Part shown: piece by piece, positions 1 to 50,930 of the stretch
Position numbering within the stretch: the first letter of the stretch is position 1
How the letters are laid out: every line of letters starts with the position of its first letter
IMG/VR virus record: IMGVR_UViG_2721755498_000006
Location: 1-52,298 of that record
Length of the DNA stretch: 52,298 nucleotides
Direction: 5' to 3' (one strand)
Source of the DNA: a virus
Lineage: Duplodnaviria > Heunggongvirae > Uroviricota > Caudoviricetes
Notes under the pieces: model-generated
Databases searched by the model: none
What the model was told of the DNA's origin: nothing
Seen by the model: only the letters and a program-made list of their open reading frames with translations
Position numbers and translations under genes: made by a program

Positions 1-3000
1 ATGCTGAAACGTCTGTTAAGTAAACTGACGGGAAACCGTCAGCAGATAGAACATCACCTAAAAAATCAGTACCAGGTTGAGGAAAACGGACTTAGCTTTC
101 CGCTATCGCTGGTTGATGATTCGCAGCTTTGGGCACTGGCATCCTGGCTAGAACAACTGGCTGAAGAAGACTATCTGATATCACTTACAGACCGGTGGTT
201 GTTGAGTTGGGACGCACTGTATCGCCTGCTGGAGGATGAGGAACATGCCAGCAGCCTGCCTCTTATCGGTGTACCTGACGTACTGCCTTTACGCGCAAGC
301 CTGAGTTCACGAGGAGCATTAAGCGATAGCGATTTTCGCGTCTGGATTGCTGAATGGGCTACGCTTCCAGCCCGCAAGCCGATCCGTTTCAGTCGTACCG
401 GTGCCATTTTAACCCATGAAAATCAGCAATACCTGTTATCGCGTGAAAACTGGGCACTCTTACAGGCAACAGAACAACTCAGTGCACAGAAAAATCAGAC
501 TCCTGGTGAAACCACTAACCAGTTGGGATGGGCCGCTATCCGCAAATGTGCGAAGCAAGCAGCCGCAAAATTTGATGATTATTTAGAAAAAACGCATGTC
601 GTCAAACCAACTTCATTGTCATTACGTCTGCGTAAAGCAACGGTTGCCGATACTGCTGTTATCGAAATTGAGCCCCATTTCGAGGACCAGCCTGCTAACT
701 GGCTAGGCAGTTTTGACAAAAACTCGCAGGTTCACGATAGCTACCGCATCCCTGGAGAGAATGGCGAACTCAGCCATGTCATTATCCCTCCCGAAGTGAA
801 AGAAGTCCTGAATTCAATACACTCGATTCCAGGCCGTCGAGTGGCCGGAAGCGAAGCGCTTTCCTTTGTTCGCAATCCTTATACCTTCCTGGGTGAAGAT
901 GCCGCCAGTGTTATTGCCCCTGAAGAACATGAACAGGCACTGTTTGATGCCAGGATTTTCTTTCATCATTTCAGGTTGATACCGCAACTGAATGCGGAAA
1001 ATAAGATCGCAGAAGTTACGCTGGTACTTGAGCCTGTTTCACCTGTTCCCCAGCCAGAAATCACTTTTGGGTTCTCAGCCCCCCGGGAGCTGGATAAATT
1101 CATACAGCAACTCGGTATTAGCGTCGCTGCACAGATGCCTGCCGGTTCATGGCAAGGTTACGAGCTGGAATTAAGTCAGTTCACTGAACAGCAGTGGCAC
1201 GATTGCCAGGCACTTCTAACTCGCTGGCAGCAAGAAATAGAAGGAAAAGAATTTAGCGATGTGCTGGATATTGCGAAGTATGGCGATCGCGTGATTGGCA
1301 TTGGTGAATTTGAAAAAATCTCCTCTCCCTGGCTGACCAAAGCGCAGAGTGAAAACTGGCTTCCAGATGACATCGATTTCTCCGCGTTTTCAGTCGAAAC
1401 ACTGTCTGGCTGGCAACCTGAAAACCTTCACCATTTCGATGAACTGCAGGAGAGAATTACTCAGGCAGAAGCTGTAGGTGAAACGCATATCACCGCACCA
1501 TGGAATGACAGCCAATTACCGTTGGATGCTGCTAAAACCTTCAGTAAGAACTGGGAAAAACAGCAAAGCACTGCAAATGAATCTCAAGGCAACGTTGCAG
1601 ATAAAACGGCCCGAGCCGTACTCAAAATTGAGCAGAATATTGAAGAAACGGCCTACATCAAACAGCGCCGCAATTCACTCCTCAATGCGCGTCATGCCGA
1701 GCCTGAAATTCCTCTGAGCCTTAAAGAGCATATCCGACTCAAAGACCATCAACGTGAAGGCGTAGCCTGGCTCCAGCAACTCTTCCTTCGTTCACCTGAG
1801 GAAACCGCAGGTTGCCTGCTGGCGGATGATATGGGGCTTGGGAAAACGCTGCAAATTCTGAGCTTCCTGGTATGGTTCATTGAAAAATTCCCGCAAGAAC
1901 CGCCCAGTCTCATTGTTGCTCCTGTCTCTCTTTTAGATAACTGGGAACGTGAACTGGACAATTTCTTCTATACCGCAGGAATACCGGTATTGAAATTGTA
2001 TGGCGAGACCATTAAAGCGGTGAAATATCCCAAACAGGCTATCCCTGCTCATCTGCAATCTCAGGGGATCAAAAACCTGCTTAAACCTGGCTGGCAGGGT
2101 GAGGCGAAAATCATCCTGACAACCTACGAAACGCTTCGCGACCAGGAGTTTTCTCTGGCACGCCAGCCGTGGTCCATTATGGTGTGCGACGAGGCACAAA
2201 AAATAAAAAACCCAGCTGCGTTAATCACACATGCGGCCAACGCGGTACAAGCCAGGTTTAAAGTGGCATGTACAGGAACACCTGTCGAAAACACACTTGT
2301 CGACCTGTGGAGCTTATTTGATTTTGCCCAGCCAGGATTGTTAGGGGCACTAAATGAATTTGGTAAACACTATGTTCGCCCCATCGAGAACGAAGATGGC
2401 CGCGATACGGAACGGTTGGAAAGCCTGCGAGCGCTGATAGAACCTCAGACTTTACGCCGAACCAAAGAAGAGGTTGCGCGTGATTTACCTCAGAAAATTG
2501 AAGTGGAAAGCTGCAAGCAATTGACGTTGTCTGGCGTGCAAAAACAGCTCTACCTTTCGTCCGTTGCAAATTGGCAACAACAGCAAGCACTGAGCGAAGG
2601 GATGCAGCAGGCCGGAACCGGTATGTTAGGTTTGTTACACCGACTGAAACTCATCTGTGCACACCCTGCAGTAGTTAATCCAGAACCACGTTTTCGTGAT
2701 AACTCACCCAAGCTTAACTGGCTGCTGAAAATACTCGCAGAACTAAAACACACCACGAAAGATAAGGTCATTATTTTTACGGAGCTTCGAGATTTACAGC
2801 GCGAACTTCAACATGCGATCCACCAAAAGTTTGGTTTCCGCCCTGTCATTATCAATGGTGATACCAGCACTAAAAGTCAAAGTCAAAACAGCCGCCAGCG
2901 CCTGATTGATGATTTTCAGGCTCAGCCTGGGTTTGGGGTGATTATTCTCTCTACGGTTGCCGTCGGATTCGGCGTTAACGTCCAGAAAGCCAATCATGTT

Positions 3001-3243
3001 ATTCATTTCACTCGCTGCTGGAACCCAGCCAAAGAAGATCAGGCAACAGACCGGGCGTACCGAATTGGGCAAACTAAAGATGTGTATGTCTATTACCCGA
3101 CGGTGAAGGACACTGAAATCACCACATTTGAAGAAACACTGGATGACCTTCTGCAGCGTCGACGTGCATTGGCCAGAGATATGCTCTGCGCTACTCCCGA
3201 TTTGAGTGGTGCGGATTTTGAGGCCATTTTGAAGGGGGCTTAA
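1..3243 (+). CDS. SNF2/Swi2-family helicase-ATPase with ~580-aa N-terminal domain of unknown function; ORF begins at the first base of the window
   Basis: 1080-aa ORF; motifs LLADDMGLGKT (motif I), VCDEAQKIKN (DEAQ box) and QATDRAYRIGQ (motif VI) in the C-terminal half; no motif recognised in the N-terminal half; not RapA-like at the N-terminus. Confidence 0.85.
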   Translation: MLKRLLSKLTGNRQQIEHHLKNQYQVEENGLSFPLSLVDDSQLWALASWLEQLAEEDYLISLTDRWLLSWDALYRLLEDEEHASSLPLIGVPDVLPLRASLSSRGALSDSDFRVWIAEWATLPARKPIRFSRTGAILTHENQQYLLSRENWALLQATEQLSAQKNQTPGETTNQLGWAAIRKCAKQAAAKFDDYLEKTHVVKPTSLSLRLRKATVADTAVIEIEPHFEDQPANWLGSFDKNSQVHDSYRIPGENGELSHVIIPPEVKEVLNSIHSIPGRRVAGSEALSFVRNPYTFLGEDAASVIAPEEHEQALFDARIFFHHFRLIPQLNAENKIAEVTLVLEPVSPVPQPEITFGFSAPRELDKFIQQLGISVAAQMPAGSWQGYELELSQFTEQQWHDCQALLTRWQQEIEGKEFSDVLDIAKYGDRVIGIGEFEKISSPWLTKAQSENWLPDDIDFSAFSVETLSGWQPENLHHFDELQERITQAEAVGETHITAPWNDSQLPLDAAKTFSKNWEKQQSTANESQGNVADKTARAVLKIEQNIEETAYIKQRRNSLLNARHAEPEIPLSLKEHIRLKDHQREGVAWLQQLFLRSPEETAGCLLADDMGLGKTLQILSFLVWFIEKFPQEPPSLIVAPVSLLDNWERELDNFFYTAGIPVLKLYGETIKAVKYPKQAIPAHLQSQGIKNLLKPGWQGEAKIILTTYETLRDQEFSLARQPWSIMVCDEAQKIKNPAALITHAANAVQARFKVACTGTPVENTLVDLWSLFDFAQPGLLGALNEFGKHYVRPIENEDGRDTERLESLRALIEPQTLRRTKEEVARDLPQKIEVESCKQLTLSGVQKQLYLSSVANWQQQQALSEGMQQAGTGMLGLLHRLKLICAHPAVVNPEPRFRDNSPKLNWLLKILAELKHTTKDKVIIFTELRDLQRELQHAIHQKFGFRPVIINGDTSTKSQSQNSRQRLIDDFQAQPGFGVIILSTVAVGFGVNVQKANHVIHFTRCWNPAKEDQATDRAYRIGQTKDVYVYYPTVKDTEITTFEETLDDLLQRRRALARDMLCATPDLSGADFEAILKGA

Positions 3244-3764
3244 CCGATACGAGTGGCAATACCACCAGCAGTCGAACCGATTCATTTGAAACGACACGTA
3301 GCCGCGATGGATCTGTATCACCTACCGACAGCTTGGGAAAGTCCCGAATTACAAATGTTCAGGGGAATACCATAACCTGCCGGACTTATTCGTTTGGAAC
3401 GACGTGTTACGACTTAGTCCGAGGGAAACATGCCAGGTAAAAACCGAATATCCATCCTCAGCTTTAGCAAATACCTCCCCATACTCGCTACTTCATATTG
3501 AGAAGATATTGTGTTGCTCATATTGCTTTGAGCATGCTCTTCAGCGTTTACATGTGGATCGTACTACCCTGATGATCCGATGCGTTGTTTACTGCTTTTA
3601 ACCTCTATATACAAAACCCCCACTAAATATTTTTCTGAGACTAACGGTAAATCATTATCTATCATGTAGTTACGATAGAATTGCATGTATCTGGCACAAA
3701 ATAAGGTTTCATTACGTTCTATCTTGTTAAATATAAAGGGATCATTTCCTCCCAAAGTCACAAT

Positions 3765-4478
3765 CTACAGGAACGGTTTCAATAACATCGGATCAATGAT
3801 CCCCTCTGGAAAATCGTAAAGATGCTGACGCGCTGTCGTCTCCTTCAGTCCCGCTGCTTTAGCAAAATCGCTGACGGAGTAGCCTTCAGGCCACCAGCTC
3901 TGATAGTAAATATCAAAATACTGCCCCCACTCTGCGCTCATCGGGCGTCGTGATAGCTGTCGGGCAGCAGATTTCTGAGTCAGTTGATATTTCACAATAT
4001 ATTCACCAACGCTAAGACCATTCTCGACTTTTTCGCGCTGAAACTGGCGACGATGGTAAACCCAGAACAGCGCCCTAAGCGATGCGCCACCAGCTTTATG
4101 CAGCGCATTCCAGGCTCTGCGGTGCGGTATCCTGTAGCGTTGCGCGTATTCGGTTTGTGTAATGCCATGCAGAATCGCTTCACGACGATAATTTTGCTTG
4201 TGCCAGGCCCAGTCAATCTTCCAGCGGTCGCATCGCTCGCTGTAGTCCTGAGCTCTTTTCTGGCGGGCAACAGGCAACTTCAGAAAGTTTTCAAAGAGTG
4301 TATCCAGCGAGCACGCAACCGGATGGATATGCTGCGTTTGCAGACGTATCTCATTGGGCGTAAGTGGGCGATATTCGAGCCCCGTTAGACGTTCCAGCCG
4401 CCATTCATGATAGTTTTTTCGACGACGTCTATTCCCGGCATACTTCAAACGATACAGTGCCTGTTCAGCGTATGACAT
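3765..4478 (-). CDS. hypothetical protein; C-terminal ~55 aa paralogous to the C-terminus of the upstream 360-aa protein
   Basis: 237-aa ORF; 14-nt overlap with upstream gene (translational coupling); shared C-terminal block (W..YFD.YY..WP.G.SV...A...L...TAR..L.D.P). Confidence 0.5.
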   Translation of the reverse strand: MSYAEQALYRLKYAGNRRRRKNYHEWRLERLTGLEYRPLTPNEIRLQTQHIHPVACSLDTLFENFLKLPVARQKRAQDYSERCDRWKIDWAWHKQNYRREAILHGITQTEYAQRYRIPHRRAWNALHKAGGASLRALFWVYHRRQFQREKVENGLSVGEYIVKYQLTQKSAARQLSRRPMSAEWGQYFDIYYQSWWPEGYSVSDFAKAAGLKETTARQHLYDFPEGIIDPMLLKPFL

Positions 4479-5547
4479 ATTGAATCTCCTTTTGAAGCCA
4501 ACCCCTCAGGATGCCAGGTGAGATAACTGCTGGTGGATAATCGCAGAGATAACGCCGGGCTGTTGAAGGATTTAAATCGTGCCAATTACAGTACTGAGCG
4601 ACGCTGACTCCGCAGGGCCAGTAATTGTCGTAATAGCGATCGAAATGCCGTAGCCAGTGAGGAGATAGTTGAGGTTTTTCAGCTGCTTTTCCGCGCTGAT
4701 ACAGCTTCAGTAAACGCTGAATGCTGCGAATCTGGCTATTTGTTTCATAATCCAGAGAGTCAATCTCTGCGGGTTCATTATCACCGAGAAATAACGGGTC
4801 AAGCTTACCTGGCAGCGGACAGTAACGTTCGGCAGGTGGCTGGCATTGCTTGAGTTTGGCTGGAGTCCTGGGTTTAGGCTTTTGTTGCTTCAGTACTTTG
4901 TAGTGCTTGCGTCCGTACAACGGAATATGTTTTGCGATTCCGGTCTTAGTGGCGTATTTAGCGAAATAGCTCAACCTTAACAGAAGCTCCCCCAGGGTCT
5001 GCGAATCGCGCTTATGGACCATGTAGTATCCGTTTTTGGGAAACCAAACTTTCCCGTTAGTTGCCGAACTCCAGGTCTTCTCCACCAGCCCATTCAATAC
5101 CTTTGGTGTACGTATGTGGTTCCCGTCCACCATGAGCACACAGTGATAGTGCTGCGCTGTCGCTTTGTCATGCTCACGAACCCAGAATATATCGAAAAAA
5201 GACTTTGGATAACGAGCACGTAATACCTGGGCTAATTGCTGGCAGAAGTCCGAAATAACCTGATTGTCATCTGTATAGCTCTTGAGATGTAAATCATAGC
5301 GAACAGCCAGAAAACGCGAAGTCCGCAGATAGGTTTGATTCACCGTATCAAAAAGGGCTTCCATGATCCTGGAATCATACTCTCCCTCTGCATGAAGTAT
5401 CGGCCAGAACACTTCGTCATACAGAAAGTATCCTTGAGCATTAATCCACTGAGCTGCTTGCGAGGCCGGTATATTATTAATTACCGATGGTTTCTCGAAC
5501 TGATGATCTCTATATTTTTCTAATTTATTCATTGAGTTACACAACAC
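4465..5547 (-). CDS. HUH-motif rolling-circle Rep-like protein (inovirus gpII / YfjJ-YagK-like as I recall the family)
   Basis: 360-aa ORF with HYHCVLMV (HUH) and downstream YFAKYATK (YxxK) motifs; directly downstream of alpA as in CP4-type islands; family name from memory, not searched. Confidence 0.5.
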   Translation of the reverse strand: MLCNSMNKLEKYRDHQFEKPSVINNIPASQAAQWINAQGYFLYDEVFWPILHAEGEYDSRIMEALFDTVNQTYLRTSRFLAVRYDLHLKSYTDDNQVISDFCQQLAQVLRARYPKSFFDIFWVREHDKATAQHYHCVLMVDGNHIRTPKVLNGLVEKTWSSATNGKVWFPKNGYYMVHKRDSQTLGELLLRLSYFAKYATKTGIAKHIPLYGRKHYKVLKQQKPKPRTPAKLKQCQPPAERYCPLPGKLDPLFLGDNEPAEIDSLDYETNSQIRSIQRLLKLYQRGKAAEKPQLSPHWLRHFDRYYDNYWPCGVSVAQYCNWHDLNPSTARRYLCDYPPAVISPGILRGWLQKEIQYVIR

Positions 5548-5599
5548 TTCATTCAGTGCTAATACAGCGTTTTAATCTGTAATTGTATTTCACGTTGTT

Positions 5600-5872
5600 T
5601 CACTGGATAAAAAAAAGCCGGACAAACCGGCTTAGGATGCAAAATGAATCTAATAAGTGTGATTTACTCAACCACTCCTCATACTGGCTGGCAGTCCAGC
5701 CGAGTGTTCTCCCTTGAATTTTACGGGGCTCAGGAAAAACCCCCTCATTCACCCAACGCCAGAGAGTAGTACGGCTGACTGCCAGCAGCTCAATCATGTG
5801 GTTGATTCGAATCAATCGCTGGGGCTCATGGAAGAAACGGATATTGCTTGAAAAGGTGTTTTCTTGTTCCAT
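5600..5872 (-). CDS. alpA: AlpA-family HTH regulator (prophage/island excision regulator type)
   Basis: 90-aa ORF; core RLIRINHMIELLAVSRTTLWRWVNEGVFPEPRKIQGRTLGWTASQYEEWL matches the AlpA pattern. Confidence 0.65.
   Translation of the reverse strand: MEQENTFSSNIRFFHEPQRLIRINHMIELLAVSRTTLWRWVNEGVFPEPRKIQGRTLGWTASQYEEWLSKSHLLDSFCILSRFVRLFFIQ
5609..5632 (-). terminator. intrinsic terminator (AGCCGG-N5-CCGGCU followed by U8) lying inside the last codons of the alpA ORF
   Basis: hairpin plus U-run read on minus strand; ORF stop codon is ~7 nt beyond the U-run. Confidence 0.5.
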
Positions 5873-5993
5873 AAAGATTCCTTAAATCAGGAGTAACGAT
5901 ATGAAACAAGAGTAATTTTCTGATCGCGTGAGGTCGTGCATACCTTAGCAATGGAATCCGAATACCTTTACTATTTAGCTGATAAATATAACT

Positions 5994-6851
5994 TTATTTT
6001 TTACTCTTTTTCCGTTTTTCGTGTCCGGCAGTACGTAATGATTCGAATCCTTGAAAGGTTTCATCCTGAAGGATATTTCTTGTCTCGCGTAAATTTCGTT
6101 TGATAACCTCTGCGCTATGCGGAGGCTCCTTAATGGTAGGCCAGAAAAATGCCGCATACTTATAGAGCAGTTTTTCGAGATTACTGGCATTTGGCAGGCA
6201 ATGACCATAGCTATCAGGCTTGAGCTTACCCTCTGCATCCAGCTTGTAGAGTATAGCGATGACTGCCCGATAGACTTCTTCACGCATTGCAGCATAGGAC
6301 TCTCCTCGTGCTGCAGGTTCACGGGCAGCGGCTAGCAGCTTATCCCTCTCAACTTTCAGGCTCTCAATCTCCTCCTCAAGTTTTCTCACATAATCGCTGA
6401 CAGCAGGAGCTGGGGATTTTTCAATATCAATGCCCAGTACCCGGATAATATCGGCACGGCGCAGTGCGAACTGCTCCAGATCGGCTTCACCAAGGGGGTA
6501 TTTTTGTACTGAAGTGATCATCTCTTCGGGGCTGTCATAACGCCCGTTAGTCACCCTAAGCAATGCAGGAGTTAACTCTGGTCGTCCACTGGAATAATCA
6601 TACTTTGGTATAAATCCAAACTCTCGCCATGAGTCCTGAAGAGATTCACGTTTGTAAAGAGGAGGCTTATGTTCATTCAGGCATTTGAGTAGCTGAAGGC
6701 TGAGCACATTAAGCGATTGATCCGGGAATCGTTTTTGCAGTGCTATGTAAAGCTCGTAAATAGAAATAAACCCAGTATCCGCTTCTGCTACCTGGCGCTG
6801 CTTTTGTCTTTGCTGCTCAATAATCTCATCAAAACTCATTTTCAAACCCAT
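5994..6851 (-). CDS. hypothetical protein (predicted coiled-coil, Lys-rich C-terminus)
   Basis: ORF track 5994..6896; start moved to MGLKM preceded by GGAGAAG; no recognised motif. Confidence 0.4.
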   Translation of the reverse strand: MGLKMSFDEIIEQQRQKQRQVAEADTGFISIYELYIALQKRFPDQSLNVLSLQLLKCLNEHKPPLYKRESLQDSWREFGFIPKYDYSSGRPELTPALLRVTNGRYDSPEEMITSVQKYPLGEADLEQFALRRADIIRVLGIDIEKSPAPAVSDYVRKLEEEIESLKVERDKLLAAAREPAARGESYAAMREEVYRAVIAILYKLDAEGKLKPDSYGHCLPNASNLEKLLYKYAAFFWPTIKEPPHSAEVIKRNLRETRNILQDETFQGFESLRTAGHEKRKKSKK

Positions 6852-7077
6852 CAAACACTTCTCCGATACGGCGGCACATTCTGCAACACCATGCATTATA
6901 TAGGGATTTTATTCACGCGTTCGGGAATGAAACTACGATACTACCCAACTGATTGTCAGATGATTAGCGGAAAATGGTGGTTGGCTATGCCGTGTTAAAC
7001 AAGTACGCCAGTAAGTACGCGAAAAGAAATTCAGTAGATTTTATTGAAAGAGACTTGAGCTAACTTATTGATTTTAA

Positions 7078-7126
7078 TGGTGCCGATAATAGGAGTCGAA
7101 CCTACGACCTTCGCATTACGAATGCG
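7078..7126 (-). repeat. att copy: 49-nt direct repeat of the thrW 3' end (plus ~17 nt of matching flank at 7061-7077)
   Basis: tggtgccgataataggagtcgaacctacgaccttcgcattacgaatgcg identical to 50855-50903. Confidence 0.9.
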
Positions 7127-7184
7127 TAAATTGATCTTGTAAAATCAATACCTATCGAATTTAAATGGATTTTTTGCCACAATA

Positions 7185-8288
7185 TTGCCACAGTTCGTTA
7201 GGAATCAGACAGAAATGGCGACTATACGCAAACGTGGTAACTACCAATGGGAAGCTCAAATCCGTAAACGTGGTTTTCCCTCTCAAACCAAAACCTTTAA
7301 CACCAAAGTAGAAGCAGAAGCTTGGGCCAAAATGATCGAGTCAGAAATGGCGAGAGGAGTTTGGCTTAGCCGCAGCGAAGCGGAATCTACGACATTGTAT
7401 GAAGCCCTAACGCGATATGAAAAAGAGATTGTTCCCGACAAAAAAGGGGCAGTGCAAGACCGATCATTGGTGCGGATACTAAAAGCCACTCAGCTGGCGA
7501 AAAACTATATGGCCAGCATCAGGAGTGCCGATGTCGCCAAGCTGAGAGATGAATGGTTGAAAATCTATGCTCCTGCAACCGTTTTAAGGCGTTTGGCCTT
7601 ACTTTCTCATGTATTCAATGTTTCGCGGAAAGAATGGGGCATGGAGAGCCTGCTGAACCCCGTAGAGGCCATTCGCAAACCCCAACCCAAGAACTCCAGG
7701 ACCAGACGCCTGGAAGCGCTGCCTGTAGTTTCTGAGAAAACCGGTGTTACGTCAGGAAAGCAAATAGCCAACGAGATCGAACATATCATCGCCGCAACAC
7801 ATTCATTAGTATTGCCAGCAATCATTCTTCTGGCGTTAGAGACAGCCATGCGCCGTAGCGAAATCGCAGAGCTTCGATGGCGCTTTATCGATCTTGATCG
7901 GCGAGTTGCACATCTGCCGGATACTAAGAATGGTAATGCCCGCGATGTCCCTTTATCAACGAAAGCCATTACGATACTGTCCAGTCTCAAGGAACATTCT
8001 AAGCCAGCTGCTGATAAGGTTTTTGATATGCGTGCAGACGCGATTACCCGAGCTTTTGACCGAGCTGTAAAACGAGCCAGAGAACGATACGAGAAAACAA
8101 ACTCATTATGTGATGAATCTTTCCTTAAAGATTTAAGATTTCATGACCTTCGACATGAAGCAACTTCTCGACTTGCTGAAATTTTCCCTATGCATGAACT
8201 AACCAAAATTACAGGACATAAAGATCCAAGAATGCTAATGCGGTATTATCATCCAAAAGCTGAAGATTTGGCGTTAAAGTTGAAATAA
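7185..8288 (+). CDS. int: tyrosine recombinase / integrase of the middle integrative element
   Basis: R..HxxR..Y catalytic signature (ETAMRRSE, HDLRHEATS, MRYYH); starts ~60 nt from att copy; likely true start at MATIRKRG (~7215); TGCCACAAT-A-TTGCCACA arm-type repeat just upstream. Confidence 0.85.
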   Translation: MPQFVRNQTEMATIRKRGNYQWEAQIRKRGFPSQTKTFNTKVEAEAWAKMIESEMARGVWLSRSEAESTTLYEALTRYEKEIVPDKKGAVQDRSLVRILKATQLAKNYMASIRSADVAKLRDEWLKIYAPATVLRRLALLSHVFNVSRKEWGMESLLNPVEAIRKPQPKNSRTRRLEALPVVSEKTGVTSGKQIANEIEHIIAATHSLVLPAIILLALETAMRRSEIAELRWRFIDLDRRVAHLPDTKNGNARDVPLSTKAITILSSLKEHSKPAADKVFDMRADAITRAFDRAVKRARERYEKTNSLCDESFLKDLRFHDLRHEATSRLAEIFPMHELTKITGHKDPRMLMRYYHPKAEDLALKLK

Positions 8289-8297
8289 GGACGTTGT

Positions 8298-8987
8298 ATG
8301 GATTATAAAAATAAGTTAGTTGATGCATCACCAAAATTAAACAACCCTCAACTATTGGCTATAATATACTTAATACCTTTTGGATACTTGATTGTAGAAA
8401 ACCCATTATGGCTAGAAAATATATACATTGCCGCTCCAATTTTCCTATCATCTATAGCTTTATTAACCAGTGTATACATAGGATATCGTGATTTATTAAA
8501 TAAAGTATTTAATAATGCAGTAGTTAAATGGGGCGTAACTGGCTTTACATATTCCGTATGCTTATGGATCGCAAAGTTTAAGCTTGACATAGCTTATGGT
8601 ATAGTCCCAGAAAACCTTAATTACTCGACATTAGCTTATGCTTTCATGCTCTCATTTCCAATAGGGGCAATGATTTGTGCAATTACAGTCTATATATACA
8701 TATTTTTGCGAGATGTATCCCCAGCAAAAATAGTAATATCCTCTATGATTTCAGTATATATTGGAAGCTTGGCTCAACATCATATACAGGTGAACAATCT
8801 TCCTGAAAAAATAATATTAATAGGACTTATAATTATGGTCCCCTATAACATGGTCAATTTAGCTAGTTCATTAGTTATTAAAAGGAAATTTAATTTTAAT
8901 CGTTTAGTATCAGGCTTATCCCTTTTTGCTGTGTCAGTTGCTCTTTTTATTATTAGCATGACAGCGGTAATGACTCCAACTTATTGA
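8298..8987 (+). CDS. AT-rich polytopic membrane protein, 3' end interrupted by IS1
   Basis: 229-aa hydrophobic ORF; reading frame runs into IS1 left end at 8966 so the last residues are IS1-encoded. Confidence 0.5.
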
Positions 8988-9484
8988 TAGTGTTTTATGT
9001 TCAGATAATGCCCGATGACTTTGTCATGCAGCTCCACCGATTTTGAGAACGACAGCGACTTCCGTCCCAGCCGTGCCAGGTGCTGCCTCAGATTCAGGTT
9101 ATGCCGCTCAATTCGCTGCGTATATCGCTTGCTGATTACGTGCAGCTTTCCCTTCAGGCGGGATTCATACAGCGGCCAGCCATCCGTCATCCATATCACC
9201 ACGTCAAAGGGTGACAGCAGGCTCATAAGACGCCCCAGCGTCGCCATAGTGCGTTCACCGAATACGTGCGCAACAACCGTCTTCCGGAGCCTGTCATACG
9301 CGTAAAACAGCCAGCGCTGGCGCGATTTAGCCCCGACGTATCCCCACTGTTCGTCCATTTCCGCGCAGACGATGACGTCACTGCCCGGCTGTATGCGCGA
9401 GGTTACCGACTGCGGCCTGAGTTTTTTAAGTGACGTAAAATCGTGTTGAGGCCAACGCCCATAATGCGGGCTGTTGCCCGGCAT
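8981..9484 (-). CDS. insB: IS1 InsB (transposase made as InsAB' by -1 frameshift)
   Basis: 167-aa [29 protein letters not shown]...; overlaps insA. Confidence 0.95.
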
Positions 9485-9678
9485 CCAACGCCATTCATGG
9501 CCATATCAATGATTTTCTGGTGCGTACCGGGTTGAGAAGCGGTGTAAGTGAACTGCAGTTGCCATGTTTTACGGCAGTGAGAGCAGAGATAGCGCTGATG
9601 TCCGGCGGTGCTTTTGCCGTTACGCACCACCCCGTCAGTAGCTGAACAGGAGGGACAGCTGATAGAAACAGAAGCCAC
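9403..9678 (-). CDS. insA: IS1 InsA
   Basis: 91-aa [43 protein letters not shown]... Confidence 0.95.
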
Positions 9679-9809
9679 TGGAGCACCTCAAAAACACCAT
9701 CATACACTAAATCAGTAAGTTGGCAGCATCACCTCAATCCGCATGACTTTAAAAAAGACAATTTTTAGAAATAAGCCGGATAAAAAAATAGCTTTATCCG
9801 GCACTCATA

Positions 9810-10760
9810 TTACAACCAGTTCTTCCGCTTAAAGTACAGATACGGTGCCAGGCCCGCGAGGATCATAAAGATAATCGCGGCAGGGTAGCCGAAGCTCCAC
9901 TTCAGTTCTGGCATAAACTCAAAGTTCATGCCATAGCTGGAAGCAACGAGCGTCGGCGGCAGGAATACCACGGATACCACCGAGAAGATTTTGATGATGC
10001 GGTTCTGCTCGATGTTGATAAAACCCATTGCCGCCTGCATCAGGAAGTTCACCTTCTGGAACAGGGATTCGTTATGCGGCAGCAGGGATTCGATATCTCG
10101 CAGGATTTCACGCGCCTGCTCCAGTTGCCCACCCGGTAAACGCGCTTTACGCACCAGGAAGTTGAGCGCGCGCTGGGTATCCATCAGACACAGGCGAACT
10201 TTCCAGCCGATATCTTCCAGTTCCGCCAGAGTGGAGAGCGCCTCGTCGTACTCATCGCCCTGATGCCCTTCCATAATCACCCGGCTCAACTGCTCCAGGT
10301 CGCTATAGATATTTTCAATTTCATCTGCCAACTGTTCGATTTTGGTTTCGAACAGATCCAGCAGCAACTCGTAGGCGTTACCGTCTACCATCGACTGGCT
10401 ACGGGCACGCATACGATACAGACGAAAAGCGGGCAGTTCACGCTCACGCAGAGTAAACAGACGACCATCACGGATGGTAAATGCCACAGTGGAGTTACCG
10501 GCGTGATCTTCCGCATCTTCAAAGAAGAAGAAGGAGTGAATATGCAGGCCGTCGTCGTCTTCAAAGAAACGTGCCGATGCTTCGATGTCTTCCAGTTCCG
10601 GGCGGGTTGCCAGGCTCTGGCCAAGTTCAGATTGTAAGCGCAGTCGCTCGTCGTCGTCCGGTTCGACAAGATCAATCCATACTGCATTTACAAGGGGTTG
10701 TGACTCTTCGACTTCCAGCCGGGTCAGTCGGTTATTTTCCAGTTGAAATGCGCTCAGCAT
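9810..10760 (-). CDS. corA: magnesium/cobalt transporter CorA
   Basis: [34 protein letters not shown] ... [11 protein letters not shown] ... matches E. coli CorA as I recall it; GMN motif present. Confidence 0.95.
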
Positions 10761-11129
10761 GACCGGGACTCCCAATGCTTAAAATATCGGACAGTTCGGT
10801 GGGCACACAGAAACAAATTGGGTTTCAGACCATTAAACAGCCTGACTCAGCGCGACGGGAAAAATTGAGGTCGCTGACAACCGCTAAGGCTATCAGCAAA
10901 AAGGGATAGCCTTAGGAGTTGATCCTGGATGACAGGATAGTGAGCCAGTATCTACTGGGTGTGTCCAAGGCGAATGTCCTCTTAGAGTGATCGTGCGCGC
11001 ATGTTACGCCAGCAAAATTTTGCCGTCAACACGCAACAGAACACCACAGAACAATAGTTGAACTTCGCGCTTTTTGGTACTCGTCAAGGTCGCTAACAGG
11101 ATAAAAAAATCCCACATCCAGGACCTATA

Positions 11130-11417
11130 ATGGCGCATCAGCTACTCATTGGTAAAGGAATGATCACCTTGAATCTCAAACGGATTTTTCTCGCCCTCAC
11201 CTTACTTCCCTTGTTTGCTGTTGCCGCTGATGATTGCGCACTCTCAGATCCGACGCTGACCGTACAGGCGTATACCGTTAATCCTCAAACAGAGCGGGTG
11301 AAAATGTACTGGCAAAAAGCCAATGGCGAAGCGTGGGGAACGTTACATGCTCTGCTGGCGGATATTAATAGTCAGGGTCAGGTGCAGATGGCGATGAACG
11401 GCGGCATCTATGATGAA
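11130..11417 (+). pseudogene. 5' fragment of a signal-peptide protein gene (yigE-like by position upstream of corA) truncated by IS1
   Basis: ORF with signal-peptide-like N-terminus runs into IS1 copy 2; identification as yigE is inference from K-12 gene order. Confidence 0.45.
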
Positions 11418-11471
11418 GGGATGCTGCCAACTTACTGATTTAGTGTATGATGGTGTTTTTGAGGTGCTCCA

Positions 11472-11747
11472 GTGGCTTCTGTTTCTATCAGCTGTCCCTC
11501 CTGTTCAGCTACTGACGGGGTGGTGCGTAACGGCAAAAGCACCGCCGGACATCAGCGCTATCTCTGCTCTCACTGCCGTAAAACATGGCAACTGCAGTTC
11601 ACTTACACCGCTTCTCAACCCGGTACGCACCAGAAAATCATTGATATGGCCATGAATGGCGTTGGATGCCGGGCAACAGCCCGCATTATGGGCGTTGGCC
11701 TCAACACGATTTTACGTCACTTAAAAAACTCAGGCCGCAGTCGGTAA
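11472..11747 (+). CDS. insA: IS1 InsA
   Basis: identical translation to 9403..9678. Confidence 0.95.
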
Positions 11748-12169
11748 CCTCGCGCATACAGCCGGGCAGTGACGTCATCGTCTGCGCGGAAATGGACGAA
11801 CAGTGGGGATACGTCGGGGCTAAATCGCGCCAGCGCTGGCTGTTTTACGCGTATGACAGGCTCCGGAAGACGGTTGTTGCGCACGTATTCGGTGAACGCA
11901 CTATGGCGACGCTGGGGCGTCTTATGAGCCTGCTGTCACCCTTTGACGTGGTGATATGGATGACGGATGGCTGGCCGCTGTATGAATCCCGCCTGAAGGG
12001 AAAGCTGCACGTAATCAGCAAGCGATATACGCAGCGAATTGAGCGGCATAACCTGAATCTGAGGCAGCACCTGGCACGGCTGGGACGGAAGTCGCTGTCG
12101 TTCTCAAAATCGGTGGAGCTGCATGACAAAGTCATCGGGCATTATCTGAACATAAAACACTATCAATAA
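11666..12169 (+). CDS. insB: IS1 InsB
   Basis: identical translation to 8981..9484. Confidence 0.95.
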
Positions 12170-12302
12170 GTTGGAGTCATTACCCTCATTCCAAAAAGAA
12201 ACCTGCCACAATTTTGCCACACTCACAACGCGCAAAAATGCACATTTGTGTTAAGAAAAGCAAAACAACGCAACAGTAACCAGATGATTTTATTAGAAAA
12301 AA

Positions 12303-12348
12303 TGGTGCCGATAATAGGAGTCGAACCTACGACCTTCGCATTACGAAT
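12303..12348 (-). repeat. att copy: 46-nt direct repeat of the thrW 3' end
   Basis: tggtgccgataataggagtcgaacctacgaccttcgcattacgaat identical to 50855-50900; preceded at ~12200-12222 by TGCCACAATTTTGCCACA arm-type repeat. Confidence 0.9.
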
Positions 12349-12436: not shown

Positions 12437-12769
12437 ATGATGTTGTCATGTGTATGTCACAAATACGGCACAACGATCTTCAAACATGTAGCCACCCAGC
12501 ATAGAAGAGCACAAAGCCTTGCAATCAAGTGCAAAACTTTGTGTACCATAGTTTTTCCTTATCAACTACCGCAAGTATCGATCGATGGAGGCTTGGATGT
12601 TAAATTTCATGACTTTGATCACTTGGTGCATCACGAAACTATCGAAGTGCAACTCGCTCATGCCAACGGCGGATCTGTGCGTGGAATATACAACCATGCT
12701 CAGTATCTAGATAAGCGCAGAGAAATGATGCAGTGGTGGGCTGACTGGCTTGATGGAGAGAAAACATAG
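12437..12769 (+). pseudogene. integrase remnant: only the last ~55 codons resemble a P4-family tyrosine integrase C-terminus
   Basis: ...VQLAHANGGSVRGIYNHAQYLDKRREMMQWWADWLD typical integrase tail including catalytic Tyr; upstream part of ORF has no integrase features. Confidence 0.6.
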
Positions 12770-12964: not shown

Positions 12965-14752
12965 ATGGAACTGAAATATAGACCCGAAATTGATGGGTTG
13001 AGAACATTAGCTGTTTTACCTGTTATCTTTTTTCATGCAGGCGTTCAATGGATTCCTGGAGGTTTTCTTGGAGTAGATGTTTTTTTTGTTATTAGTGGTT
13101 TTTTGATTACCAGCATTTTGCTAAAAGAATGCAGCAATGGAACATTTACATTCTCTGGATTTTATGAGAGAAGGGTTCGCAGAATTGCACCAGCATTAAT
13201 TTTAATGACATCAGTAACATTCATTATATCATTATTTGTGATGGTCCCATATGACCTAAAAAATCTTGGTCAATCAGTAGTTGCAACTATTTTTTCAGCA
13301 AACAATATATTGTTGTACCTAACATCAGGATACTGGTCTACAGCATCTGAATTTAAACCATTATATCACACATGGAGTCTGGCTGTAGAAGAACAGTATT
13401 ATCTTGTGGCACCTATAATAATATATATTATTTATTCAATTAATCATAATAAATTAATAAAAAATAGTTTTATATTCATGCTGTTAGTATCAATTGCCAG
13501 TTTTTTATTTGCAGCAATTGAGACAACACATAATAGAGAGTTTTCATTCCTCATGCTACCCTCTAGAGCCTGGGAGATCGCACTCGGCGGGATTGCTGCT
13601 ATTGCTCATTCGAAAATAAAAAGAAAAAGCAATGCATTATCATTCATTGGTTTTTTGTTAATAATATTTAGTTATTTTCTTGTTAGAGGAAAAATATCAC
13701 ACCCAGGACTCGAAACATTGATGCCAGTGATTGGCACATGTTTATTTTTGATGCATGCCAACTCACATAAAGGCGTAGGAAAGATAATGTCAATAAAACC
13801 AATGGTATTATGTGGTATGATAAGTTACTCATTATACCTTTGGCATCAGCCAGTTTTTGCATTTATAAGACTAAACTCTCAGTTCGAGCCATCAACAATA
13901 TATTTTATTGTTTCTATACCTTTTATTTTTATTATATCTTTTGCATCATATTTCTTTGTTGAGAAACCATTTAGAAACAAGAAAAAAACTTCTACAAAAA
14001 AGATTGTATCATACGCAATAGCATCGTCGTTAGTGTTATCAATATCTGGTTGGTTGATGCACAAGACATATGGATTGCAGAATATCAGGCCAGAGCTTGC
14101 CTATGGCGGCAATCCTCAGGAGTATGTGGACAGCCCTAAACGATTAAAGAATATTGACTTTTCAGATAATGGAAAGAAAATATTAATCATGGGTAATTCA
14201 TATGCGCGAGATATCATTAATGTAATATCTACTAAATTAAACCTTGATGATCTTAATATTGTTTATTTTGAAGGAAATTGCTACGAATCAATAAATAACT
14301 CTCACAAATTAGATTATTACTTGAAAGACGCAAACATTATTATTTACTCTGACAACTGGGGTGGGGAGGAGTATAATAACAGCGTAGAGAAATTAAAATA
14401 CTGCTACGATAACGTAAAGTTAGCATCCAACGCTAAGGTATACATGGTAGGGACAAAAAACTTTGGGTATAACAATAACTTTGCCACTAACTTATCTAAA
14501 AATGATCGAATCTTAGCGAAAACATACCCACTATCAAAGTATTTACAGTTCAATAATGATGCAAAATTAGAGTTAGGAAATGATTATATAGATGTATTTA
14601 GTCTTATTCAAGATGAGAATGGGATGGTTAATGTTTTTGATGGTGATGGTAAGTTTTTATCATATGATACCAATCACTTAACTAAATATGGGGCAAGTTA
14701 CTTAGGTGATATTTTATCAAAAAAAACAGATTTGTTTCATAGTTTAAAATAA
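12965..14752 (+). CDS. O-antigen acyltransferase (acyltransferase-3 membrane domain plus C-terminal SGNH-like domain; OafA/Oac type), lysogenic conversion gene
   Basis: 595-aa AT-rich ORF; N-terminus ...LRTLAVLPVIFFHAGVQ...GVDVFFVISGFLIT..., multiple TM segments, long C-terminal soluble domain; located between tailspike and att as P22 gtr / Sf6 oac. Confidence 0.8.
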   Translation: MELKYRPEIDGLRTLAVLPVIFFHAGVQWIPGGFLGVDVFFVISGFLITSILLKECSNGTFTFSGFYERRVRRIAPALILMTSVTFIISLFVMVPYDLKNLGQSVVATIFSANNILLYLTSGYWSTASEFKPLYHTWSLAVEEQYYLVAPIIIYIIYSINHNKLIKNSFIFMLLVSIASFLFAAIETTHNREFSFLMLPSRAWEIALGGIAAIAHSKIKRKSNALSFIGFLLIIFSYFLVRGKISHPGLETLMPVIGTCLFLMHANSHKGVGKIMSIKPMVLCGMISYSLYLWHQPVFAFIRLNSQFEPSTIYFIVSIPFIFIISFASYFFVEKPFRNKKKTSTKKIVSYAIASSLVLSISGWLMHKTYGLQNIRPELAYGGNPQEYVDSPKRLKNIDFSDNGKKILIMGNSYARDIINVISTKLNLDDLNIVYFEGNCYESINNSHKLDYYLKDANIIIYSDNWGGEEYNNSVEKLKYCYDNVKLASNAKVYMVGTKNFGYNNNFATNLSKNDRILAKTYPLSKYLQFNNDAKLELGNDYIDVFSLIQDENGMVNVFDGDGKFLSYDTNHLTKYGASYLGDILSKKTDLFHSLK

Positions 14753-25815: not shown

Positions 25816-26726
25816 TATCGAATTCCTTTATTCAGTTGCGCCTTAAGCTTGCGGTACGTCTCTACATCCCCTTTGTTTGCTGCCACCTCAATCTGCTTTT
25901 CAATCGCAGAGATATTTGCAGCAACAGCATGTCCCTGAATGGGTTCATCAGGTAACGGGGCTTCTGAAACAGGCTTGGCTCGAGGCTTGAGAGTTAAACG
26001 TTCTGACAGTCGAGTGAGTTCAATCAGCGCGGATTGCCCGTCCATCGCCAGCAACTGGCGTGTTTTCTCAGGATTAGCACCAAGGTGATACATGAGAGCG
26101 GCGGATTTCTCCGGGAAGAGGCGCATGATGTCGGCACCGACTGCTGGCGGCACCAGTTGCATGAATGCATCCTCTTTCTCCTGATAGTCAGGGATATTGA
26201 GCTTTTCCGCTGCGTCGTAGTGCTTACGGGCTGCCTCGACGTATTGCGCTGATTGCTGGGTGAACTCCTGAGTTTTGCGACCCTGCTCGGCGACAGCCTG
26301 GCTTCGTGCGTCCATAGCCTTGATCTGCCATTCACTGTTTGCCTGCTGGAAGGCAGCCAGTGCGCGGCTCTGGTCATAGTCGTACTTAGCCAGCGCATCT
26401 TCGGAAAGATAATCGTTAGGGTCTGGTTGTTTTGGTAACTCAGGGTTCACCCGCAGGTGCTCCGGCAACTCTCCACGCTTAACCGCTTCCATCTGCTGCT
26501 CAAGCTCACGCTGGCGTTTGCGTTCGATGCGGCGACGGGCAAATTCAGCATTAGTTGCCGGGTCTTGTTTTGGTTTCTCATCGTCTTTCAGGACAATCTC
26601 GAAGCCTTCTTCCTGACCTGCGATGTCGTTGGCATTATCGACAACTAAGCCATCAGCAGATGCCGCTGCATGATTGCCGGGCAGGGTTAATTCTTCAGAA
26701 GCCTGAATGTCGGTGGTTTGGTCCAT
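25815..26726 (-). CDS. scaffolding protein gp8 (P22-like)
   Basis: 303 aa; collinear with P22 scaffold as recalled. Confidence 0.95.
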
Positions 26727-33063: not shown

Positions 33064-33139
33064 TGGTGCTGGTTAACGGACTTGAACCGCTACCCATTCG
33101 CTTACAAGGCGACTGCTCTACCATTGGAGCTAAACCAGC
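33064..33139 (-). tRNA. tRNA-Thr (anticodon UGU) in the Q-S interval
   Basis: hand-folded cloverleaf: 7-bp acceptor GCUGGUU/AACCAGC, D-stem GCUC/GAGC, T-loop UUCAAGU, anticodon loop CUUGUAA, 3' CCA encoded. Confidence 0.75.
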
Positions 33140-33144
33140 ATATT

Positions 33145-33219
33145 TGGCGGGACAGCGTGGACTCGAACCACGATAAGAAGGTTAACAGCCTTCCGTAATG
33201 ACCTTTATACGACTGACCC
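33145..33219 (-). tRNA. tRNA-Asn (anticodon GUU)-like, slightly imperfect acceptor and D stems
   Basis: anticodon stem GAAGG/CCUUC, loop CUGUUAA, T-arm CGUGG-UUCGAGU-CCACG, CCA encoded; one U-U mismatch in acceptor stem. Confidence 0.55.
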
Positions 33220-37259: not shown

Positions 37260-38711
37260 TCAGAATCCTCCTTTCTTCTTGGACTGCGGTTCCTCGCGTT
37301 CACGTCGGCGCATTTCAGCAGACTGTTGGTCTGTGTCATAAATAGCGCCATTTGCCTGAATGCAATACACCGTGCCGGTATTGCCATGACGATTGAGACG
37401 AAGGATTAGTTCGGTTTCACCAGGTGGAACACTGTCATCAAAAGCGCCTTCACGATGGATCCCAACCCAATAATCGCAATCCTGTTCAATCTGCCCTGTA
37501 TCTCGTGAGTCACTTGGTAATGGGCGTTTATTGGTTCGGCTTTCCAGTGCGCGGTTAAGCTGCGTCAGAAGCACAACAACGCAATCAAGCTCTTTGGCAA
37601 GGTTCTTCAGTCCTTTGGTGATCATGCCGTAAGCAAGGTCGTTGCGATCGGCCTTCTCAGCGGTCATTAGTGTCAGGTAATCGACCAGAATCATGCCAAC
37701 ACATCCTTTTTCTCGCTTGATTCGACGGCTTTCGCTGACGATTTGAGCCAGAGATAATCCCGGCGTGTCGTCGATGTAAAGCATGTCGATTTCACTCAAG
37801 CGATTAGCTGTTTCGATCGCCCTGTTGAAGTCACCATCGTAATCACCCTGATAGCCGTCATCAGCGTCATTTGTCGCCGGAAGGTAAAAAATATTCGGGT
37901 TAACACCTGACTTCTGTCCTACCAGCTTTTCCAGTATCTGGTCACCTGGCATTTCAAGGCTGAACATCAGAGCGGGCTTTTTCTCATGCACTGCGCAGTT
38001 GATTGCCATCTGGCTGTATAGCGTCGTTTTCCCCATCTTAGGGCGAGCGCCAATGACGAACAGAGAGCCTTTCACCAGACCTTTCGGTGAAAGCATCCTG
38101 TCCAGAGATGGGATCCCTGTGCTCATTCCTCGTTGTTCGCCTGACGGGTCAAATCGCTTCTCAAGGTCGCTAACCCAGTCTTCCATGACCTCACCAAATG
38201 AGCGAAGGCCGCGACGCGATCCGGTTTTTGCATGGTCTGTCAGTTGCGTGAAAATCGACTGAATAGCTTCGTACTTCTGTGTTGCAGTCATTCCGTTGCG
38301 GGAATAGAGCAATTCCGTCGCTTCAGTCATGCGGTTGATGGCGTAGCGTTCCATTGCGGTTTCACGAACCTGCATTGCATAGGCAACGATGTTTGCTGCG
38401 CTTGGCGTGTTCTTTGCGATCTCAGCGATATAAGCAAAACCGCCAACAGACGCCGTTAACGATTTACGCTCCAGCTCATCGAAAAGCGTCAGGCCATCTA
38501 CTGGCTTTTGCTCCCGGTGCATTCTGGTTATTTCTTCGAAAAGGATTTTGTGTGGCCGGCTGTAAAATGAGTCAGGCTTCAGCATCGCCAGAACTTTCTG
38601 GACGCGCTCACTGCTGTCATCATCCAGAAGCAATCCACCAATCACCGCCTGCTCTGCCTCGATGCTATGGGGCGGCGCATAAAAATTATCGGTCATCGTG
38701 TTCACCCTCAC
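37260..38711 (-). CDS. DnaB-family replicative helicase (P22 gene 12 / lambda P position)
   Basis: 483 aa; Walker A GARPKMGKTT; DnaB C-terminal domain motifs. Confidence 0.9.
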   Translation of the reverse strand: MRVNTMTDNFYAPPHSIEAEQAVIGGLLLDDDSSERVQKVLAMLKPDSFYSRPHKILFEEITRMHREQKPVDGLTLFDELERKSLTASVGGFAYIAEIAKNTPSAANIVAYAMQVRETAMERYAINRMTEATELLYSRNGMTATQKYEAIQSIFTQLTDHAKTGSRRGLRSFGEVMEDWVSDLEKRFDPSGEQRGMSTGIPSLDRMLSPKGLVKGSLFVIGARPKMGKTTLYSQMAINCAVHEKKPALMFSLEMPGDQILEKLVGQKSGVNPNIFYLPATNDADDGYQGDYDGDFNRAIETANRLSEIDMLYIDDTPGLSLAQIVSESRRIKREKGCVGMILVDYLTLMTAEKADRNDLAYGMITKGLKNLAKELDCVVVLLTQLNRALESRTNKRPLPSDSRDTGQIEQDCDYWVGIHREGAFDDSVPPGETELILRLNRHGNTGTVYCIQANGAIYDTDQQSAEMRRREREEPQSKKKGGF

Positions 38712-49455: not shown

Positions 49456-49803
49456 GTGGAAGAAGAAATCTTCACTCGTGAAGAGGCAGCATCGTATCTG
49501 AAGGTAGACAAAGGCACTATCACGCAGTGGATACGAAGTGGACGACTTCAGGCCGCAAAGATAAATCCAGATAAACCTAAAAGCCCATATCGTATTTGCA
49601 AGTCAGACTGCATTGCGGCGCTTAAGTCTGTGAGACACAATAGCGCGGTGAATGCGGTTGATGTGCAGGAGGTTAAAGCATGTCAATCAAACTACGCGGT
49701 GGCACGTGGCACTGCGATTTCGTCGCGCCAGATGGATCAAGAGTTAGACGCTCTCTTGAAACATCGGACAAAAGGCAAGCGCAAGAACTTCACGATCGTC
49801 TGA
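49456..49803 (+). CDS. xis: excisionase (P22 Xis-like, HTH)
   Basis: 115 aa; MEEEIFTREEAASYLKVDKGTITQWIRSGRL HTH; overlaps int start by ~124 nt. Confidence 0.7.
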   Translation: MEEEIFTREEAASYLKVDKGTITQWIRSGRLQAAKINPDKPKSPYRICKSDCIAALKSVRHNSAVNAVDVQEVKACQSNYAVARGTAISSRQMDQELDALLKHRTKGKRKNFTIV

Positions 49804-50840: not shown

Positions 50841-50854
50841 CTTATTGATTTAAA

Positions 50855-50930
50855 TGGTGCCGATAATAGGAGTCGAACCTACGACCTTCGCATTACGAAT
50901 GCGCTGCTCTACCAACTGAGCTATATCGGC
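50855..50930 (-). tRNA. thrW: tRNA-Thr (anticodon CGU), intact; attR-side att site
   Basis: GCCGATATAGCTCAGTTGGTAGAGCAGCGCATTCGTAATGCGAAGGTCGTAGGTTCGACTCCTATTATCGGCACCA on minus strand. Confidence 0.95.

Follow-up and report, generated by a model that had tools for sequence, protein, structure and literature searches.

The stretch of viral DNA analysed here (IMG/VR record IMGVR_UViG_2721755498_000006, positions 1 to 52,298, Caudoviricetes; hereafter the window, 52,298 nucleotides) very probably carries a tandem array of three elements that entered the tRNA gene thrW by tyrosine-recombinase integration: a P22-like prophage, a stub of an integrative and mobilizable element (IME) cut by IS1, and an island with Zorya defence genes and a restriction–modification (RM) system. 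The original prediction, made from the letters of the window, had proposed two elements with different integrases inserted in sequence at the same tRNA. The shared target and the difference between integrases hold, the middle and phage integrases being 29% identical over the catalytic domain only and all three integrases mutually distant; the number of elements, however, is three. The array is a real feature and an ordinary case of a well-described phenomenon, and it leaves the current understanding of site-specific recombination unchanged. The gain lies in the anatomy, now corrected to three elements with a corA composite transposon and an IS1-truncated IME stub among the parts, and in a pointer to a thrW-specific family of IncP-type mobilizable islands; the bounds of the prophage are also set, and a Zorya defence island is found to belong to the array.

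Copies of the thrW 3' end mark the element boundaries

A 46-mer, TGGTGCCGATAATAGGAGTCGAACCTACGACCTTCGCATTACGAAT, occurs exactly at 7078–7123, 12303–12348 and 50855–50900, always on the plus strand, with 0 occurrences expected from shuffled sequence, in agreement with the three direct thrW 3' copies (7078–7126, 12303–12348 and 50855–50903) on which the original prediction was built. Copies A and C are 3 nt (GCG) longer than copy B, ending at 7126 and 50903, and start-to-start distances are 5,225 bp from A to B and 38,552 bp from B to C. tRNA genes were called with ARAGORN and the Rfam tRNA model (threshold 29 bits); ARAGORN found one tRNA-Thr(CGT), the intact thrW at 50855–50930 on the minus strand, whose 3' 46–49 nt (50855–50903) constitute copy C. 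The 46-nt block corresponds to tRNA positions 31–76 and the 49-nt block to positions 28–76, so that the entire anticodon loop lies inside both. Beyond the 5' end of thrW stands its chromosomal neighbour proA (51045–52298, minus strand; 417-aa open reading frame, ORF), annotated at the same position in three of the comparison loci (L005, L006 and L007).

Each of the three cores has its own unique flanking sequence. Copy A (7078–7126, minus strand in the tRNA sense) is a hybrid site in which the P' end of the Zorya island (left) meets the middle element's P arm (right), and copy B (12303–12348, likewise minus) is one in which the middle element's P' arm (left) meets the prophage P arm (right); in both, one element's P arm faces its neighbour's P' arm. 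In att terms, copy A serves as attR for the middle element and copy C as attL for the prophage. The extra 3 nt of copy A derive from the longer identity block of the middle element.

Copies A and C also share a left-hand trailer, TAACTTATTGATTT(T/A)AA, at 7061–7077 and 50838–50854, and are identical at 68 of 70 positions (7057–7126 versus 50834–50903), whereas the left flank of copy B bears no relation to it. Alignment thus bears out the earlier claim of a trailer of about 17 bp common to the leftmost copy and the gap between int and the tRNA and missing from the middle copy. The 66-bp identity claimed with it is an extended match but not a full identity (65/66, one mismatch), and it is no special mark of the distal copy. 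The record of phage HK446 gives a 63-bp attP, 'similar to thrW and ptwF', that consists of precisely the 17-bp trailer and the 46-nt block, so the extended identity is a known property of this attP class. Similar trailers are found on the Zorya island, on CP4-6-like islands and at the empty E. coli site, and are absent from the middle element's P' arm.

Repeats of 46–49 bp with IS1 copies nearby can mislead short-read assemblers, and the exact A and IS1/P' junctions are unique to the window, as might be expected if the repeats were assembly duplications or marked a chimeric contig join at a repeated tRNA fragment. We regard such an artefact as extremely improbable. The unique flanks of the repeats pair exactly as site-specific recombination predicts; the orientation rules are obeyed throughout, with the int trailer to the left of the core and the P arm to its right; and each half-junction is present in independent finished genomes or in a free phage genome. 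The left flank of copy A, for instance, adjoins intact thrW in strain 2018-11-3CC (L005), and a 13.7-kb island of E. coli N9 (L003) has as its ends the sequences that lie to the right of A and to the left of B.

PGAP annotates, in many RefSeq genomes, a 112-nt 'tRNA-Ser' that spans copy A and the middle element's P arm (7078–7189 in the window, minus strand). The Rfam tRNA model scores 22.3 bits at 7085–7152 (minus strand) and ARAGORN makes no call; together with a predicted fold no better than that of shuffled sequences (z = -1.0), this led us to reject the gene. It is probably a false call from a vestigial tRNA-like 5' half in the attP and P arm.

The middle unit is an IS1-truncated remnant of a larger island

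The middle unit opens on the tRNA-distal side with a P arm and int upstream region (7127–7214, plus strand), followed at 88 bp from copy A by an intact gene for a 357-aa tyrosine integrase (7215–8288, plus; Pfam Phage_integrase, 1.8e-26; phrog_1). The next gene is the 5' part of a 296-aa membrane-protein gene (8298–8965, plus; phrog_26661), interrupted by a transposon so that residues 1–224 of 296 match the profile; neither Pfam nor NCBIfam gave a match to this ORF. The transposon itself consists of a left IS1 (8966–9736, minus; annotated as IS1A in N9), a captured chromosomal segment of 1,677 bp (9737–11413) and a right IS1 (11414–12184, plus). Its IS1 arms form an inverted repeat of 771 nt with 2 mismatches, and at 3.2 kb it accounts for 62% of the 5,225-bp unit. 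The captured segment holds an intact corA (9810–10775, minus), ysgD and a phosphodiester-glycosidase gene of which the first 284 bp are present (11130–11413, plus). Beyond the right IS1 only 118 bp of P' arm survive (12185–12302, plus).

Comparison with E. coli N9 reveals how this unit arose. The middle int gene is identical in N9 at the DNA level, and int, the following ORF and the transposon together match the window at 99.98% identity across 5,119 bp. In N9 a perfect 9-bp duplication, CATGACAGC, brackets the transposon inside the 296-aa membrane-protein gene, and the 13.7-kb island runs on for 8,439 bp beyond the transposon before reaching a 118-bp arm and att like those of the window, the arm (L003:8813–8930) being 100% identical. 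In the window, CATGACAGC is found only to the left of the transposon, and the next base after the right IS1 aligns 8,439 bp further on in N9. Because only the left duplication remains and the alignment jumps by 8,439 bp, the unit is a deletion derivative, the outer end of the right IS1 being the left endpoint of the deletion. The transposon came in first, and an IS1-adjacent deletion of 8.4 kb then extended from exactly the outer end of its right IS1.

The deletion stopped 19 bp short of the arm-type site in the P' arm, leaving int and the conserved att parts whole. It removed trbJ, trbL and traJ from the window copy; an excisionase or alpA-type gene is absent from 7127–12302, and no replicase gene (repA/repC) is present in the window. 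With only int and the att arms left, the window copy is not classifiable as a functional IME. The stub is predicted to be unable to excise unaided, since the sole excisionase candidate sits in the deleted segment.

An intact int gene, both att sites and both arm-type sites could also suggest a complete and autonomous small integrative element, a minimal island or phage satellite with corA as its cargo, and a Pantoea genome does have a 2.7-kb version at thrW with int plus one ORF. This is highly improbable for the window: the right target duplication is gone and the flank resumes 8,439 bp along the N9 element, the ORF after int is cut at residue 224 of 296, the trb/traJ/Xis-like backbone of all end-intact relatives is absent here, and there are no capsid, packaging or replication genes. 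We rejected this interpretation because the unit has lost one target duplication and, compared with N9, 8.4 kb of sequence. A small 'element' at a tRNA gene, then, may be the IS-truncated remnant of a larger one.

A truncated IME might still be more than dead wreckage. That an int-plus-arms stub forms a persistent, recombination-competent docking unit seems to us improbable, if worth stating for its consequences: such a stub could be excised, or mobilised in cis, when a related island or IncP helper gives excisionase and transfer functions in trans, whatever had transposed into it would travel along, a second corA in this case, and neighbouring islands could be rearranged by its Int.

Among 5,426 complete E. 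coli genomes, the base of all integrase, empty-site and junction counts given here, the middle integrase occurred in 93, once per genome and always on the chromosome. The Pantoea version (L011:9860–12674, Candidatus Pantoea haifensis) has nothing but int, the conserved P' arm and a membrane-ORF homologue, and is an independent 'int-only' derivative. In E. coli TST3 (L008), an IS1B lies near the middle-element P' arm with ordinary chromosome (ykgL) beyond it, and IS1-mediated deletions are therefore recurrent in the array.

The transposon has an existence of its own. The IS1/corA junction was found in 150 of the 5,426 genomes, and target duplications of 8–9 bp flank it at three unrelated sites: CATGACAGC in the thrW island of N9, GTTTTTTG in a prophage lipocalin gene of YZB902 and TTGAGCGTC on a 236-kb plasmid of CH468. 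IS1-corA-IS1 is an active composite transposon carrying the gene of a housekeeping Mg2+/Co2+ channel. A literature search for an IS1-corA transposon returned no relevant paper.

Arm-type sites follow the integrase of the middle element

An arm-type repeat inside each end of the 5.2-kb element had been predicted, and it was found at coordinates slightly shifted from those first given: TGCCACAATATTGCCACA at 7175–7192 in the P arm and TGCCACAATTTTGCCACA at 12204–12221 in the P' arm, both on the plus strand and both of the form TGCCACA-N4-TGCCACA. The motif TGCCACAAT(A/T)TTGCCACA has just two matches in the window, against 0.01 expected. The P' arm motif lies about 99 bp from the core; from the core through TGCCACAATTTTGCCACA, and no further, the arm is conserved between E. 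coli, Pantoea and Enterobacter.

Upstream of int, the motif is kept in relatives from Enterobacter, Pantoea, Yersinia and Thiobacillus, and the arm pair stands at a fixed distance from the int start codon in relatives whose Int is 58–69% identical. These 58–69% relatives, Yersinia species and Thiobacillus among them, have no thrW fragment in the upstream flank, and Thiobacillus has a fragment of a different tRNA. As the motif follows the integrase family across different targets, the TGCCACA repeats appear to behave as arm-type sites of the middle Int, which presumably binds them.

Intact relatives resemble IncP-hijacking mobilizable islands

Relatives of the middle element free of insertion sequences, 10.9–13.9 kb in length, lie directly at thrW in L006, L007 and Enterobacter (L012); overall, the family targets thrW in E. 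coli, Enterobacter and Pantoea. Their genes were compared with Pfam, NCBIfam and PHROG profiles. The backbone runs opposite to int and comprises a 70-aa ORF, TrbL/VirB6, a small lipoprotein-like ORF in the TrbK position, TrbJ (378 bits; NCBIfam cut-off 286), TraJ/NikA (159 bits; cut-off 134), a 92-aa ORF (in L006 at 26187–26465) weakly matching phrog_66 'excisionase' (2.8e-5) and a HigA-like helix-turn-helix (HTH) gene. In L006, L007 and N9, no replicase was annotated or detected with Pfam in the conserved backbone. The backbone lies between two regions of variable cargo, which includes, for example, Tn3-family elements bearing strAB, an ABC-three-component defence system, or a helicase together with a restriction endonuclease.

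The same backbone genes have been proposed as the signature of GIsul2 and of the IncP island (PMC5704250). Elements that share them, termed PIMEs, were shown experimentally to be mobilised by IncP plasmids (bioRxiv 10.64898/2026.01.12.698999); the characterised PIMEs integrate at guaA. Judged by their genes, the relatives of the middle element thus resemble IncP-hijacking mobilizable islands. A limited literature search turned up no description of a thrW-specific family of IncP-type mobilizable islands with defence and resistance cargo.

A member of the same thrW island family in E. coli S1-CAM-01-C (L009) carries Tn3-family transposons with aph(3'')-Ib/aph(6)-Id and is followed by a P22-like prophage whose P arm is the same as that of the window.

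The proximal P22-like prophage carries an HK446-type integration module

The 38.5-kb prophage (12349–50854) is bounded by copies B and C. Its P arm (12349 to about 12560) matches the free phages SfX, HK446 and mEpX2, and joining the sequence to the right of B with that to the left of C reproduces the HK446 attP nearly base for base over about 400 bp. At the opposite end, xis (49456–49803; phrog_2907, 1.5e-52) lies upstream of the 386-aa int gene (49680–50840), which ends 14 bp from copy C and is followed by the 17-bp trailer (50838–50854). The prophage Int is identical to that of HK446 at 387 of 387 aligned positions, stop included. With its own Int and Xis, the prophage is predicted to be still excisable by B x C recombination. 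A 46-bp att at thrW has been described for SfI, SfIV and SfV (PMC3851460).

The prophage body is 97–98% identical to IME10, Sf6 and Sf101 over the aligned 37–55% of the query. Since its virion genes are P22-like while HK446 is a siphovirus, the integration module represents a mosaic swap. A gene for a 595-aa AT3-SGNH acyltransferase (12965–14752) lies beside the distal att of the prophage, which is probably inducible and serotype-modifying.

Several smaller features of the prophage were noted. The sequence ATG(T/G)CACAAATACGGCACAA occurs at 12454–12473 and 50788–50807, on the inner side of both prophage ends (the second copy within the 3' end of int), and it recurs in the attP of HK446 and in the fossil of the empty site; it is therefore probably an arm-type site of the phage Int. 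A 110-aa ORF just inside the prophage P arm (12437–12769) has an equivalent in TST3 that PGAP labels 'integrase, incomplete'. We rejected it as a fragment of a P4-type integrase, or as a fourth decayed unit, as BLASTP against the P4-type Int of L005 gave no match; the first 200 bp or so past copy B (12349 to about 12550) are common to free phage attP arms, and the 3' half of the ORF lies beyond them. Further inside, tRNA-Thr(TGT) and tRNA-Asn(GTT) genes occupy 33064–33219; Sf6 has the same tRNA pair at the start of its late operon (PMC8022706). Two clusters of 11-bp direct repeats, TGGACAACCGT, at 39096–39202 within an ORF on the minus strand (38686–39576) are iteron-like and suggest a replication origin.

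The distal element is a Zorya type I defence island

The sequence to the left of copy A (1–7077) belongs to a Zorya type I defence island, of which it forms the tRNA-proximal end; the left window edge cuts through the island. The window opens exactly at the ATG of type I zorD (1–3243, plus), followed by a hypothetical gene (3765–4478, minus), a YagK/YfjJ gene (4465–5547, minus; Pfam YagK_YfjJ_C), a small HTH/AlpA-like gene (about 5654–5872, minus, with coordinates transferred from L004 14654–14872), a second hypothetical gene (5994–6896, minus) and the 17-bp trailer TAACTTATTGATTTTAA (7061–7077, plus), which forms the P' end of the island and resembles the phage trailer at 50838–50854. Pfam domains in 1–7077 were of the SNF2/helicase and YagK_YfjJ_C types, and the hypothetical genes had no match in Pfam or NCBIfam.

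Over 7,100 bp, this sequence matches loci annotated as zorC/zorD, YagK/YfjJ and HTH in 46 genomes at 100% identity. Strain 2018-11-3CC shows the island directly adjoining an intact thrW, with an identical trailer at L005:27061–27077. There the island spans about 26 kb, with zorABCD and a type I RM system, then a 440-aa P4-type integrase (1338–2660) located 164 bp from a fourth att copy, which in turn adjoins a truncated LysR pseudogene and paoD. In such identical islands zorA, zorB, zorC and the type I RM system lie further left, past the window edge, and from the same islands the window's own Zorya element would be expected to encode a P4-type integrase.

The left flank of A was also considered as native chromosome with a native attB trailer. 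This was rejected, the flank being the Zorya island; at a genuinely empty site the trailer is TAACTCTTTGATTTTAA, which sits within a fossil phage P' arm. The locus is of use chiefly for annotation: each tRNA fragment should be read as a hybrid att, and a seemingly 'chromosomal' flank may be another island.

Assembly and history of the array

In stepwise integration, each attP brings a replacement tRNA segment running from the anticodon stem-loop to the 3' end. Strand exchange takes place within the shared block, presumably in or near the anticodon loop; the incoming P' side completes the tRNA, and the old 3' segment is pushed distally, so that one tRNA fragment is left per element. The elements would then have entered from distal to proximal: the Zorya island first, next the middle element and last the phage, an order that the trailers fit. 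In the comparison loci examined, the element next to the intact tRNA was a phage, or a member of the middle-element family where no phage was present, and islands with P4-type int were always distal. Of the sequential insertion proposed at the outset, a tandem array formed by site-specific integration at thrW stands, but the order of insertion is not readable from the structure alone.

Either insertion order yields an identical final structure, and a second element may enter either restored core (PMC7192596). The same parts may therefore have come together differently, with the middle element entering the distal hybrid att of a resident prophage, an island swapped by homologous recombination, or the whole array imported pre-assembled. 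A history of this kind is possible, though we consider it rather unlikely. In its favour, N9 has the transposon-bearing middle element at 99.98% identity, yet with a CP4-6-like island and another prophage as its neighbours. Set against this are the constant positions of the phage or middle-element family (tRNA-proximal) and the P4-int islands (distal) in the loci examined, and the phage P arm, which reads CTG where the tRNA has GCG, within the identity block of the middle element. Since CTG replaces GCG in that block, the hybrid site would be a poorer target for the middle element.

Some observations do weigh against serial integration at thrW as we reconstruct it. The Zorya/middle junction (A) and the IS1/118-bp P' junction were each found in 0 of the 5,426 genomes, nor was the combination of Zorya island, IS1-cut stub and P22-like phage found in any of them, and the exact array is therefore without an independent replicate; a unique A junction also suits the different histories just described. 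In N9, the same transposon-bearing element has a different distal neighbour, the CP4-6-like island, as well as a different prophage, so the history of the array may include homologous exchange and not just stepwise integration. The excisionase assignment of the relatives' 92-aa ORF is weak, with no Pfam or NCBIfam match. Finally, the integrase and distal att of the third element would lie beyond the window, as judged from genomes with 100% identical proximal ends. Taken with these points, serial tyrosine-recombinase integration of three elements remains very probable as the source of the array.

The empty site and the frequency of arrays

Comparison with an unoccupied thrW, which the original prediction had called for, was possible: the empty site (truncated LysR pseudogene, trailer, thrW and proA) was contiguous in 948 of the 5,426 genomes. 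The number of places per genome matching the empty-site probe had a median of 2 and a maximum of 6, and from these multiple matches thrW arrays are probably routine in E. coli. thrW is among the most often targeted tRNA genes of this species (PMC7545054).

The 'empty' site has a structure of its own. The 69 bp downstream of the tRNA (L005:1059–1127, with an equivalent in the 948 genomes; compare window 50786–50854) are about 84% identical to the last 50 bp or so of an HK446/SfX-type int plus its trailer, and end abruptly at the LysR pseudogene. The 'empty' E. coli thrW site is thus itself a scar.

Comparison with known systems

The elements of the array have close counterparts. With the lambdoid and P22-like phages that use thrW through an SfX/HK446-type Int (HK446, mEpX2, HK542 and SfX), the prophage shares an Int identical to that of HK446, a near-identical attP and the position of xis upstream of int, and with serotype-converting phages the position of an O-antigen-modifying acyltransferase next to att. 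It differs from HK446, a siphovirus, in having virion and early genes of the Sf6/IME10/Sf101 (P22-like) type.

The transposon conforms to IS1 composite transposons in its two inverted IS1 copies around 1.7 kb and its 8–9 bp target duplications, but its cargo is corA, a housekeeping Mg2+/Co2+ channel gene, rather than a resistance gene. As in other IS1-mediated adjacent deletions, the deletion in the window is one-sided and begins exactly at the IS1 end.

Like GIsul2, the IncP island and PIMEs, the relatives of the middle element have genes for Int, TraJ, a Xis/AlpA-like protein and the TrbJ/TrbK-like/TrbL trio. They share with these elements large regions of variable cargo that include defence genes, and with PIME4 a backbone oriented opposite to int. 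They differ from PIMEs in targeting thrW, not guaA, and in that no replicase was found in their conserved backbone; the window copy departs further from PIME- and GIsul2-like IMEs, keeping only int of the signature genes.

Tandem arrays and site-specific accretion at tRNA genes have been described before (Mageeney et al. 2020, PMC7192596; Guedon et al. 2017, PMC5704250), and the array in the window differs from them in nothing of principle. It shows the same direct repeat of the tRNA 3' end at each junction and the same hybrid att sites between neighbours, distantly related integrases with one target, and a decayed element beside apparently functional ones.

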